A stretch of 64,000 bases of DNA, taken from assembly GCF_003018115.1 (NCBI RefSeq), contig NZ_CP027457.1; one strand, 5' to 3'. The stretch is from Escherichia coli (GTDB lineage Bacteria > Pseudomonadota > Gammaproteobacteria > Enterobacterales > Enterobacteriaceae). Every line of letters begins with the position of its first letter. Positions within the stretch are counted from its first letter, which is position 1. Made by a program: the position numbers. Below, one piece after another: positions 30,201-33,200 of this stretch.

Positions 30201-33200
30201 CGGGCTGGCCTGGTGGATACGCGGACGCGAACAAAAAGCGCCTGCCGAACCCAAACCGGTAAAAATGGCAGAGAATAATACCGTTGTCGAAGCGACGTGG
30301 AACGATGTACAACTGGAAGATTCTCTGGGAATGGAAGTGGGTTATCGACTGATCCCGATGGTCGATTTCCAGCAGGATGGTGAGTTGTTGGGCCGTATAC
30401 GCAGTATCCGCAAGAAATTTGCCCAGGAGATGGGATTTCTGCCGCCAGTGGTGCACATTCGCGACAATATGGATCTGCAACCTGCCCGCTATCGCATTTT
30501 GATGAAAGGCGTGGAGATAGGCAGTGGTGATGCTTATCCGGGGCGCTGGTTGGCGATTAACCCTGGAACCGCTGCCGGGACGTTACCTGGTGAGGCGACC
30601 ATCGATCCGGCATTTGGCCTGAATGCTATCTGGATTGAAAGTGCGCTAAAAGAACAGGCGCAGATTCAGGGGTACACCGTGGTTGAGGCTAGCACGGTGG
30701 TAGCAACGCATCTTAACCACCTCATTAGCCAGCATGCCGCAGAGCTGTTTGGTCGTCAGGAGGCGCAACAGCTGCTGGATCGCGTCGCCCAGGAGATGCC
30801 AAAGCTGACGGAAGATCTCGTTCCTGGCGTCGTCACGCTCACCACACTGCATAAAGTGCTGCAAAATCTGCTCGATGAAAAAGTGCCGATTCGCGATATG
30901 CGCACTATTCTCGAAACGCTGGCGGAACATGCACCCATCCAAAGTGATCCACATGAATTAACCGCCGTCGTGCGCGTGGCGTTGGGACGGGCGATTACCC
31001 AGCAGTGGTTTCCTGGCAAAGATGAAGTCCATGTTATTGGCCTCGATACACCGCTGGAACGTTTGTTGCTACAGGCGTTGCAGGGCGGGGGCGGACTGGA
31101 GCCAGGGCTGGCGGATCGTTTACTGGCGCAAACTCAGGAAGCGCTATCCCGTCAGGAGATGTTGGGTGCGCCGCCAGTATTGTTGGTGAACCACGCGCTG
31201 CGACCATTATTGTCTCGCTTTCTGCGCCGCAGCTTGCCGCAGTTAGTGGTGCTGTCGAATCTGGAACTATCTGATAACCGACATATCCGCATGACGGCGA
31301 CAATTGGCGGTAAATGATGAGAACCTTATTAGCAATATTATTGTTTCCGCTGCTAGTGCAAGCAGCCGGGGAGGGGATGTGGCAGGCAAGTAGTGTCGGA
31401 ATTACGCTAAATCATCGCGGTGAGTCGATGTCGTCAGCGCCTCTTTCTACTCGACAACCTGCTTCAGGATTGATGACGCTGGTGGCGTGGCGTTATCAGC
31501 TTATCGGCCCGACACCTGCAGGACTGCGGGTTCGCTTGTGTTCGCAATCTCGTTGTGTCGAATTAGAGGGGCAGAGCGGAACCACCGTGGCCTTTTCCGG
31601 TATAGCGGCAGCAGAACCGTTGCGCTTTATCTGGGAAGTGCCTGGCGGTGGGCGGTTAATTCCACCGCTAAAGGTACAACGGAATGAAGTGATTGTGAAT
31701 TATCGCTGAAGGACAAATAAAAATTACGCGCTCGCGAGCATGTTTAATAACTCAGCGAAAAAGGCTCGATGTTTTGTTGCAATTATTTATCAGGAATAGC
31801 TTGCAACAAAACATGCCAAAAAGATGTGAATTATCCTCTTGTCAAAGGGCTTGGATAAAAATCTTCAGAGTTACGGTATAGCTGCAACTGGCGAGTTCGC
31901 GTATTGGTCTGTATGATCATACATGATAGCCATTCTGATTCAGAATAAGGGTCACTTAAATCCTGAACATCCTCATTTGAAAGGATTAATTCACATTCTT
32001 TGTCCCTAAAATCCAGCCAGGCTCGTTGTGATTTTTTAAGCAAGTTAAGTTGTTCGGTATCAGGTTTTTTTGCACCTGTGCGTGGCACTTGTTCTATATA
32101 ACGATAAGCTTCACCATAAGCTTTATTTAATTGCGCATCGACGAGATTGTATTCTTGTCGCAGGCATGATTTGCTCACATTAATGTCAGTATCATCATCT
32201 GAATTTTTTTGCCAACAATCTTTGATGGCTGAAATGTCATGGTCGTTTACTATAACCGTATCTTCTGCGTAAGCCTGGCAAGAGATAATGCCTAATGTTA
32301 ATACAAGAAATTTAAACACTGCGGTATTCCTTAAATTGAACCGTTATCGTTTTCCTGGGCCTGGATATTACGCTTCTGGCCTCTTACTCAACAGTGAAAA
32401 AACGATGGCATGTCCGTTTTCAGAATACATTTAGATGGCAATAAAAAAGCCTGATCGGCTAAACCTGATCAGGCTTCACTCTCACGAAAAATCGATTACA
32501 TACGCTCTACAGTCTCAATACCCAGCGTATCCAGACCCAGCTTCAGCGTCTTCGCTGTCAGTTGTGCCAGTTTCAGACGGCTGTTACGCACTTCTTCGTT
32601 TTCTGCGCTGAGGATCGGGCAGTGCTCGTAGAAGCCAGAGAACAGACCGGCCAGATCGTACAGGTAAGCACACATTACATGCGGCGTGCCTTCACGGGCA
32701 ACCACGGTGAGGGTTTCTTCAAACTGCAGCAGGCGAGCTGCCAGTTGCGCTTCACGATCTTCACGGATGATAACCGGAGCTGCAGCCAGTTGCTCTTCGT
32801 CAATTTCTGCTTTACGGAACACGGACAATACACGCGTGTATGCATACTGCATGTATGGCGCGGTATTACCCTCAAACGCCAGCATGTTGTCCCAGTCGAA
32901 GATGTAGTCCGTGGTGCGGTTTTTGGAGAGATCCGCATATTTCACCGCACCAATACCAACCGCGTTAGCCAGTTTTTCCAGCTCGTCGGCTGGCATATCC
33001 GGGTTCTTTTCTGCCACCAGACGGCGTGCACGTTCCAGGGCTTCATCCAGCAGATCGGCCAGTTTCACTGTACCACCCGCGCGGGTTTTGAACGGTTTGC
33101 CGTCTTTACCCAGCATCATGCCGAACATGTGGTGTTCCAGCGGTACGGATTCCGGTACATAGCCTGCTTTACGGACGATCGCCCATGCCTGCATCAGGTG

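Follow-up and report, generated by a model that had tools for sequence, protein, structure and literature searches.

The flhE–argS interval and its AT-rich islet

We analyzed the interval between flhE and argS in a 64,000-nucleotide stretch of Escherichia coli DNA (contig NZ_CP027457.1; hereafter, the window). The spacer between these two genes is occupied by yecT and its flanking sequences, and its features are as follows.

31317–31709, + strand: flhE, the left flank and final gene of flhBAE (GC 0.53)
31710–32495: AT-rich islet, 786 bp, the entire flhE–argS spacer; yecT-less genomes have a spacer of 52–56 bp instead
31769–31814: inverted repeat with perfect 14-bp arms, between the convergent genes flhE and yecT
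31831–32319, − strand: yecT CDS, GTG start, 162 aa (ORF call, Pfam, RefSeq annotation)
32320–32446, − strand: yecT promoter/regulatory region (published K-12 promoter data)
32410–32454, + strand: yecV, small ORF of 14 codons, MSVFRIHLDGNKKA (RefSeq annotation)
32447–32476, − strand: argS intrinsic terminator hairpin, GCCTGATC stem followed by a U-run (−22.1 kcal/mol, z = −4.1)
32496–34229, − strand: argS, the right flank (GC 0.532)

The inverted repeat, with folding energies of −24.1 kcal/mol on the + strand (z = −3.8) and −21.1 kcal/mol on the − strand (z = −3.3), is likely a bidirectional terminator. The small ORF yecV runs divergently from yecT and has its 3′ end inside the argS terminator; RefSeq labels it 'protein YecV' in K-12-type genomes and 'hypothetical protein' in F9792. 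No Rfam family of noncoding RNAs was found at 31.6–32.6 kb.

The original prediction placed an AT-rich island at yecT, at positions 31710–32400, and measurement bore this out: GC is 0.384 over that segment compared with 0.53 in flhE and argS and 0.547 in flhA. The yecT CDS itself has a GC of 0.380, the flhE–yecT spacer 0.364 and the yecT–argS spacer 0.42, and in a 300-bp profile GC drops from ~0.54 to 0.38 near ~31650 and is back up by ~32500. We delimited the islet by aligning the window with ST131, E. albertii and K-12; comparison with the empty-site genomes puts its limits at the flhE stop codon (31707–31709) and just before the argS stop (32496). The left edge of the predicted island was thus correct and its right edge fell short, the whole unit being 31710–32495, with a GC of 0.387 across 786 bp versus 0.503 for the backbone.

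Among 39 complete chromosomal backbone CDS taken from the window itself, yecT has both the lowest GC (0.380; mean 0.510, sd 0.027, z = −4.76) and the lowest GC3 (0.307; mean 0.540, sd 0.049, z = −4.76), setting it apart in base composition as predicted. The gene set used initially was that of F9792, and redoing the statistics on window-derived backbone genes left the outcome unchanged. In the F9792 set, yecT ranked fourth of 59 genes in codon usage distance from the pooled genes, a measure that short genes inflate. The window diverges from F9792 beyond position 42819, where a prophage lies. Along the backbone (1–42819), the AT-richness of 31710–32400 is matched by only 3.5% of 691-bp segments; the remaining equally AT-rich segments are confined to three long regulatory stretches between genes (ftnB–araF, uspC–flhD and cutC–torY), and yecT is therefore the sole AT-rich coding stretch of this backbone.

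Distribution and origin of the insert

A full yecT is present in 3,560 of 5,426 complete E. coli genomes (about two-thirds) and a partial copy in 77, while the flhE–argS site is empty in 1,783, including ST131 and UTI89. Truncated copies occur in Shigella flexneri. The 52-bp spacer of yecT-less E. coli shares homology with its E. albertii counterpart, and the empty spacer is common to E. coli B2, E. albertii and strain SCPM-O-B-8794; the homology between B2 and E. albertii identifies the insert as the derived state. The empty allele has a terminator hairpin (GCCGATGTC...GACATCGGC) unlike the argS hairpin of the filled allele and is therefore not a deletion product of the latter. Compact flhE–argS spacers were also found in Enterobacter and Cedecea.

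We surveyed 80 Enterobacteriaceae species loci, covering ~6 kb on each side of flhA–flhE, and found yecT at only two, both of them Escherichia (E. whittamii and Escherichia sp. E1V33); within these limits it was not found at 76 non-Escherichia species loci or in E. albertii. At this position E. fergusonii carries an allele of 58% identity, convergent with flhE. In other genera flhE–argS holds cargo of the GH88, MFS and class B PBP kinds, and across Enterobacteriaceae the spacer has taken up cargo repeatedly. Synonymous divergence (dS) of yecT from the E. whittamii and E1V33 copies is 0.14–0.20, near the 0.18–0.32 of the flanks, indicating that the insert is older than the split between E. coli and the cryptic clades; it is younger than the split from other genera.

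The GC and GC3 extremes, the polymorphism in E. coli, the ancestral empty spacer and the distribution across Enterobacteriaceae support the suggested horizontal acquisition, and we are confident that the islet is xenogeneic. Its suggested old age holds relative to the E. coli/cryptic-clade split and fails relative to the divergence of the genera. The islet would have entered an Escherichia ancestor after the divergence from E. albertii and other genera, and would then have persisted, or moved between lineages by flank recombination, as one of two alleles, the other being the ancestral 52-bp spacer.

A mobile-element origin was considered and rejected, as the islet shows no recombinase ORF, target-site duplication or terminal inverted repeats; in relation to the boundaries we found a single repeat, a direct one of 11 nt (31694 and 31825), and it does not flank the islet. 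B2 genomes diverge from the window by 5.5–6.4% in flhA/flhE and 2% in argS. The flank recombination breakpoint that this difference led us to suspect was dropped because flhE dS is about twice that of argS in the K-12 comparison too.

Control by H-NS and BglJ-RcsB

The low GC of the islet makes it an H-NS target, and it shows two features expected of such targets, a contiguous AT excess and a distribution that varies among strains and leaves out the outgroups. In published ChAP-seq data (Higashi 2016, PMC4720273, S6 and S2 Tables), flhE is H-NS-bound only in K-12 and SE11, depending on the neighbouring insert yecT/ECSE_2112, and SE15 has no insert next to flhE ('None', S6 Table); S6 Table counts flhE among 42 core genes that give an H-NS signal only in dependence on an adjoining inserted segment. 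We conclude that H-NS very probably binds the islet, from which it would extend into flhE.

In an hns stpA mutant, yecT is 'moderately increased', and BglJ-RcsB activates it strongly; the yecT promoter is active in K-12, its transcription start has been mapped by 5′-RACE, and PyecT is one of 10 BglJ-RcsB-activated promoters (Salscheider 2014, PMC3950696). The original prediction spoke of probable H-NS silencing. Binding agrees with the published insert-dependent signal, but silencing is only partial because the rise of yecT in the hns stpA mutant is moderate. In these published data, basal expression of yecT is low, with a modest rise without H-NS/StpA and a strong one with BglJ-RcsB. A consensus sigma70 scan upstream of yecT (32320–32446) found no strong promoter site. 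The RcsB-type half-site of the published BglJ-RcsB motif, wwTTCykA, has one match upstream of yecT, at 32420–32427, which proves nothing, given 42 occurrences in the window versus 34 expected.

YecT, its relatives and a possible immunity-type role

YecT consists of a Sec signal peptide (MFKFLVLTLGIISCQAYA followed by ED, with cleavage between AYA and ED) and an LprI/DUF1311 domain. Pfam LprI (PF07007) is its sole Pfam domain (E = 2e-17; 63.9 bits vs a cut-off of 22), with residues 35–145 spanning profile positions 1–106 of 106, and MliC (PF09864) is absent. Cysteines C35, C52, C109 and C133 are at least 90% conserved among 46 sequences. The AF2 model (pLDDT 89.8) is all-alpha and has only one credible fold match, the DUF1311 structure 3gi7_A (Foldseek gives a probability of 1.00, although with E = 0.16; for the target, TM is 0.80, with an rmsd of 1.8 Å over 98 columns), which a profile search with YecT also finds (E = 4e-13). 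Solved structures yield no function, since the matches to YecT are the uncharacterised DUF1311 structures 3gi7 and 6ar7 only. The protein would be Sec-exported, four-helix and periplasmic, with predicted disulfide bonds. Across E. coli, E. whittamii and E1V33, yecT has a dN/dS of 0.06–0.16, based on 13–18 synonymous versus 3–5 nonsynonymous changes, and purifying selection keeps the gene intact.

We examined 11 genomic contexts outside E. coli in which homologues 39–64% identical to YecT occur. Six of them, with homologues at 50–64% identity, are type VI clusters (L084, L085, L089, L095, L096 and L097) that share the order ClpV, VgrG, polymorphic effector, one to four small genes, YecT-like gene, PAAR, a 386-aa protein and TssM. 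Their effectors end in Pesticin-lysozyme, Muramidase, GH19 or CHAP domains, which swap across loci while the YecT-like gene stays; the toxin domain is Pesticin-like at L085 (residues ~540–761), Muramidase at L095 (~540–748) and GH19 at L089 and L097. At none of the six does the YecT-like gene directly adjoin the effector; the signal peptides of the intervening small genes were checked at three (L084, L085 and L095). The available DNA of the other five contexts (E. fergusonii, two Ignatzschineria and two low-GC organisms) has no type VI genes, and one further context (L098) is too short to judge. In the type VI clusters, GC is 0.37–0.39 in the YecT-like gene, as in toxin/immunity genes, and 0.52–0.62 in core genes; the subfamily is AT-rich wherever it is located, even within GC-rich type VI clusters. 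When the L084 and L085 islands were compared by megablast with the 5,426 E. coli genomes, no type VI cluster of this kind was found.

Because its closest relatives sit in vgrG effector-immunity islands beside peptidoglycan-hydrolase toxins, an immunity-type function suggests itself for YecT. As expected of an orphan immunity gene, yecT neighbours flhE and argS and has no cognate effector nearby, and the signal peptide directs its product to the periplasm. There YecT would inhibit an incoming muramidase or lysozyme-like toxin, and the genome would hold yecT for defence but no effector cognate to it. Identity of the YecT-like gene between type VI clusters (95–97%) tracks that of core genes (90–98%), however, so the gene could be a conserved accessory and not an immunity gene. 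YecT is only 21–27% identical to the immunity protein Etsi4 and to an LprI protein beside a pesticin-type toxin, and the 19 papers found to mention YecT by name report no toxin neutralisation, binding or phenotype. We therefore put forward the orphan immunity-type reading tentatively, as a real possibility and the likeliest of the functions considered. The account as a whole, an H-NS-bound one-gene xenogeneic islet encoding a putative orphan immunity-type protein, we hold to be somewhat more probable than not. A more specific version is to be taken with greater reserve: YecT may be a stand-alone type VI immunity protein against muramidase/lysozyme-like effectors of rival Enterobacterales, quieted by H-NS, induced by RcsB-BglJ under envelope attack and preserved alongside the ancestral empty allele in a long-lived presence/absence polymorphism. 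If true, roughly two in three E. coli, along with some cryptic Escherichia, would be protected.

Alternatively, YecT could be a periplasmic envelope or flagellar regulator like Proteus UmoC or Salmonella ScwA, acting on Rcs/flhDC or lytic transglycosylases. This would account for the site of yecT by the flagellar operon flhBAE and for the RcsB control of its BglJ-RcsB-dependent promoter; a 64%-identical homologue adjoins flgD/flgE in another organism, and ScwA, itself an LprI-domain protein, controls MltD levels. The NCBIfam model for UmoC, a flagellar biogenesis regulator, matches full-length YecT (E = 8e-9), but the score of 35.7 bits falls well short of the 120-bit cut-off, and all LprI proteins tested score 20–44 bits; we rejected membership of YecT in this family (NF041434) as the likeness is generic to the fold. 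Further, the third of E. coli without yecT has intact flhA and flhE, and the unrelated cargo at flhE–argS in other genera suggests that the flagellar neighbourhood is probably incidental. We consider a regulatory role unlikely.

E. coli already has the lysozyme inhibitors Ivy, MliC and PliG, which counts against the idea that YecT is a periplasmic inhibitor of animal host lysozyme aiding survival of innate immunity. That idea agrees with the periplasmic location given by the signal peptide, with the Pfam and RefSeq name ('lysozyme inhibitor LprI family') and with the lysozyme inhibition reported for M. tuberculosis LprI (Sethi 2016). According to Cestero 2021, however, the MliC domain of M. 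tuberculosis LprI has been shown by experiment to suffice for lysozyme resistance, no experiment supports such inhibition by PF07007, and ScwA, with its LprI domain, plays no part in lysozyme resistance; YecT lacks MliC. Host lysozyme is thus an improbable target, and the RefSeq name is probably an over-annotation derived from the two-domain mycobacterial protein.

The islet could also be a silenced, functionless relic, foreign AT-rich DNA tolerated under H-NS and heading for loss, as in B2. H-NS binding, low basal expression, the lack of yecT from a third of genomes at no obvious cost, and the 77 partial and the truncated S. flexneri copies would fit such a relic, but the low dN/dS, the intact ORF in 3,560 genomes with conserved cysteines and core residues, and an empty allele that is ancestral and not produced by deletion make it quite improbable. 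Very little speaks for yecT as an old core gene that is AT-rich through its own functional or regulatory constraints and was deleted from yecT-less strains: its flank-like synonymous divergence between Escherichia species and the homologue at the same site in E. fergusonii would fit, but its absence from the 76 non-Escherichia loci and E. albertii, the E. albertii-like B2 spacer whose different hairpin deletion cannot yield, and the AT-richness of the subfamily inside GC-rich type VI clusters already largely refute it.

The polymorphism and the function reading go beyond the original prediction. The islet offers a cleanly delimited one-gene xenogeneic example whose two alleles are both frequent in E. 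coli and occur in more than one Escherichia species, and it is convenient for studying how H-NS extends beyond an insert into the core operon flhBAE. For the preferred immunity-type reading, the genomic company of the relatives suggests a role for yecT that can be put to the test, a defence with Rcs-linked regulation against the peptidoglycan-hydrolase toxins of type VI systems.

Several characterized systems resemble parts of this account. M. tuberculosis LprI (Rv1541c) has PF07007 in common with YecT, but it is a lipoprotein whose proven inhibitory activity lies in a second domain, MliC, whereas YecT is soluble and has a single domain. Salmonella ScwA and Proteus UmoC are, like YecT, periplasmic LprI-domain proteins with conserved cysteines; ScwA is horizontally acquired and has its LprI domain at the C-terminal end of 275 aa, and YecT scores far under the cut-off of the UmoC family. 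In EHEC T6SS-2, the DUF1311 protein Etsi4 (Z0245) neutralises the periplasmic toxin Etse4 (PLoS Pathog 2026, PMC12981562). Etsi4 shares only 21% identity with YecT (BLASTP E = 0.024), scores under the Pfam LprI threshold (18.7 vs 22 bits), unlike YecT, and has an adjoining cognate effector, which yecT does not.

LprI/DUF1311 proteins with signal peptides have been predicted to be type VI (orphan) immunity proteins in Pantoea (PMC9796082) and immunity proteins next to WHIX effectors (PMC12135965). In the T6SS1 hcp island of Pantoea agglomerans (Carobbi et al. 2022), LprI orphans lack an adjacent effector, and their homologues elsewhere follow lysozyme-like toxins. The YecT subfamily shows the same orphan pattern in vgrG islands, but, unlike for the Pantoea homologues, no locus was found with a YecT-like gene directly after a toxin, and yecT itself, unlike the Pantoea orphans, is not part of a type VI cluster but has a housekeeping and a flagellar gene as its neighbours. 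PyecT belongs to the BglJ-RcsB regulon of H-NS-repressed loci (Salscheider et al. 2014, NAR), to which we add only the location of the non-significant half-site. Finally, the yecT insert is the same object as that listed among H-NS-bound strain-specific insertions by Higashi et al. 2016 (PLoS Genet, S6 Table), so that published tables already record both its strain-specific insertion and its binding by H-NS; the islet boundaries, the outgroup state, the population frequency and the function reading are added here.

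Composition and regulation of the flhE-argS spacer

The window is E. coli chromosome with the local order flhA-flhE-yecT-yecV-argS. Its final 21 kb (42820–64000) are not E. coli backbone and belong to a prophage of the Stx1a-converting type, inserted in yecE. Two STEC strains, W24 and O178:H19 2012C-4431, are 100% matches to the window, which diverges from F9792 at 42819. Adjoining Rfam hits at 51678–51866, within the early region of the prophage, are to isrK (61.6 bits) and to C4 antisense RNA (82.4 bits).

Features of the window
7841–9041, AT-rich regulatory intergenic stretch, ftnB-araF
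14951–16261, AT-rich regulatory intergenic stretch, uspC-flhD (flhDC control region)
29239–31317, +, flhA
31317–31709, +, flhE
31710–32495, yecT islet, including the yecT promoter
31769–31814, probable convergent terminator with 14-bp arms
31831–32319, −, yecT
32410–32454, +, yecV, a 14-codon ORF
32447–32476, islet's own argS terminator
32496–34229, −, argS
35731–36651, AT-rich regulatory intergenic stretch, cutC-torY
~42.86–44.15 kb, prophage integrase
~57.2 kb, Q antiterminator
~58.17–59.40 kb, stxA1a/stxB1a
window end, prophage holin and lysozyme

The lower GC content originally noted for yecT and its flanks was borne out, with values of 0.384 for 31710–32400 and 0.380 for yecT versus 0.53 for flhE, 0.532 for argS and 0.547 for flhA. 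Among the 39 complete backbone genes of the window, yecT ranked last in both GC (z = −4.76) and GC3 (0.307, where the genes average 0.540; z = −4.76). Only 3.5% of backbone windows of equal length matched the AT-richness of the yecT interval, and the others that did so all lay within the long regulatory intergenic regions ftnB-araF, uspC-flhD and cutC-torY. The MicL sRNA lies at 35543–35850, and torY and cutC have been flagged as H-NS-bound (Higashi et al. 2016, PMC4720273).

Conclusions about H-NS were drawn from the literature. Higashi et al. described 42 core genes bound by H-NS in just one or two of three strains, depending on an adjoining inserted segment; flhE is among them, the insertion being "yecT" in K-12 and "ECSE_2112" in SE11, with none in SE15, and the "yecT" transcription unit is marked as H-NS-bound in their S2 Table. 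Salscheider et al. (2014, PMC3950696) mapped the yecT transcription start and showed that BglJ-RcsB activates its promoter. With constitutive BglJ they found yecT mRNA "strongly increased", and in an hns stpA bglJ mutant "moderately increased". These binding tables and the moderate increase together show that H-NS binds at yecT and that repression is partial, so that the proposed silencing holds as to binding and only in part as to repression. Bonocora et al. (2015) reported an intragenic sigma54 site in argS (site IS24), TCGGTATGCTGATTGCA; the window has an exact copy at 33717–33733 (−), pointing to yecT from ~1.4 kb upstream.

Two alleles and the age of the insertion

Of the 5,426 complete E. 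coli genomes searched, 3,560 have full-length yecT (95–100% identity) and 77 have partial yecT, while in 1,783, including ST131 and UTI89, a 52-bp spacer with a single hairpin replaces the islet; these classes cover 5,420 genomes. Alignment showed the filled and empty alleles to be unlike across the whole spacer between the stop codons of flhE and argS, and the unit is therefore 31710–32495 (786 bp). Transposon-like ends and a recombinase were looked for in the islet, and none was found. Two identical copies of an 11-nt direct repeat, TGTGAATTATC, lie at 31694–31704 (flhE 3' end) and 31825–31835 (across the yecT stop codon), flanking a 121-bp spacer with the convergent hairpin; ~0.1–0.3 such repeats per kb are expected by chance. 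One E. coli genome (NZ_CM128585.1) carries an IS1A element inside the flhE-yecT-argS stretch (cf. bioRxiv 10.1101/2025.03.19.644130), a region that appears prone to rearrangement.

We searched 80 Enterobacteriaceae species loci around the flhA 3' end with FlhE, YecT and ArgS. Within ~6 kb on each side of flhA-flhE, yecT was present in only two species, E. whittamii and Escherichia sp. E1V33. In E. albertii and in SCPM-O-B-8794, a divergent "E. coli", the spacer measures 56 bp and is clearly homologous to that of B2 strains, all three sharing the hairpin GCCGATGTC...GACATCGGC, and compact single-hairpin spacers also occur in Enterobacter and Cedecea species. These spacers indicate that the empty site is ancestral and the islet an insertion. 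The terminator hairpin of the filled allele is unlike that of the empty allele, which rules out that the B2 empty allele is a deletion derivative. Either the two alleles have coexisted since before the split of E. coli and the cryptic clades, or they were exchanged through recombination in the flanks. Measured from the window to E. whittamii or E1V33, the dS of yecT (0.20 or 0.14) is close to that of flhE (0.32 or 0.18) and argS (0.30), which makes "old" reasonable at genus scale for the suggested acquisition.

E. fergusonii (L088) carries in the same position, convergent with flhE, a homologue 58% identical to E. coli YecT (corner at 39–539 and 619–1011). Its dS to E. coli is saturated for both this gene (~1.5) and flhE (~1.5–1.6), and with a flhE dS of ~1.6 versus 0.4 for E. 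albertii, the E. fergusonii corner as a whole looks xenologous.

Outside Escherichia, the flhE-argS junction is a hotspot holding unrelated cargo (species loci L008–L083; e.g., L021 7293–10812 and L025 7293–10979): a GH88 hydrolase and MFS sugar transporter in Enterobacter, GH88 and a class B penicillin-binding protein (PBP3SAL-like) in Salmonella, and the latter type of protein without GH88 in Citrobacter Cu233. ORFs in Kosakonia, Pluralibacter and Pseudescherichia match Enterobacter-type cargo by size alone, and some Enterobacter and Cedecea junctions are free of cargo.

The yecT observation is thus confirmed and its interpretation supported, both being essentially documented already; what goes beyond the published record is the structure of the alleles, which of them is ancestral, and the link of yecT to type VI secretion.

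YecT and the type VI contexts of its homologues

With dN/dS of 0.06–0.16 and 13–18 synonymous versus 3–5 nonsynonymous differences from cryptic-clade copies, yecT is under purifying selection. YecT carries a Sec signal peptide ahead of an LprI/DUF1311 domain (63.9 bits), and four of its cysteines are nearly invariant; its AlphaFold model is helical and confident (pLDDT 89.8), the sole solved relative being the uncharacterised DUF1311 protein 3gi7. The subfamily is small, with four full-length clusters above 40% identity in 1.84 billion representative proteins. The label "lysozyme inhibitor" derives from M. tuberculosis LprI, which has an MliC domain besides its LprI domain; Cestero et al. (2021) attributed the inhibitory activity to MliC, found the LprI-domain protein ScwA to have no lysozyme role, and noted that there is no evidence for such a role of the LprI domain itself.

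Genomic context is more informative about function than this name. Among eleven contexts of the nearest homologues (39–64% identity), six were type VI secretion vgrG islands, from Citrobacter, Gibbsiella, Salmonella, a Pantoea/Enterobacter-type cluster and two metagenomic contigs; the other five had no type VI genes within the available DNA, and a further one (L098) was too short to judge. All six islands share the layout ClpV-VgrG-polymorphic effector-one to four small genes-YecT-like-PAAR-386-aa protein-TssM-TssA, and small genes of three (L084, L085 and L095) encode N-terminal signal-peptide-like sequences. The effectors have a common N-terminus of ~540 aa (three compared) and C-terminal peptidoglycan-hydrolase domains (one Pesticin-type lysozyme, two Muramidase PF11860, two GH19 and one CHAP). 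Like the toxin and immunity genes, the YecT-like gene is low in GC (0.37–0.39 versus 0.52–0.62 for core genes). It was never seen directly adjoining the toxin gene in these islands; it is retained from one toxin domain to the next, and its level of identity follows that of the core genes. The 386-aa protein (L084 6822–7982, L085 6383–7543, L095 8808–9968), present in every such cluster, has no Pfam or NCBIfam match and is 48% identical between cluster types versus 77–79% for core genes, a faster divergence; an effector or adaptor function that has escaped recognition is possible.

We favour the reading of YecT as an orphan inhibitor of the immunity type, directed at a muramidase-like toxin, and regard its type VI link as about as likely to hold as to fail. 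Against this reading stand the separation of the YecT-like gene from the toxin gene, its constancy across toxin domains, its core-like identity and the five contexts in which no type VI genes were seen. A UmoC/ScwA-like regulatory role is possible. The match to the NCBIfam UmoC model scores 35.7 bits, where the cut-off is 120, and is generic to all LprI proteins tested. The orphan immunity reading draws on the vgrG-island homologues together with known systems: an (orphan) type VI immunity role has been proposed for LprI proteins with signal peptides in Pantoea (PMC9796082) and beside WHIX effectors (PMC12135965), and Etsi4 of EHEC, a DUF1311 protein, neutralises a periplasmic toxin of a type VI system (PMC12981562).
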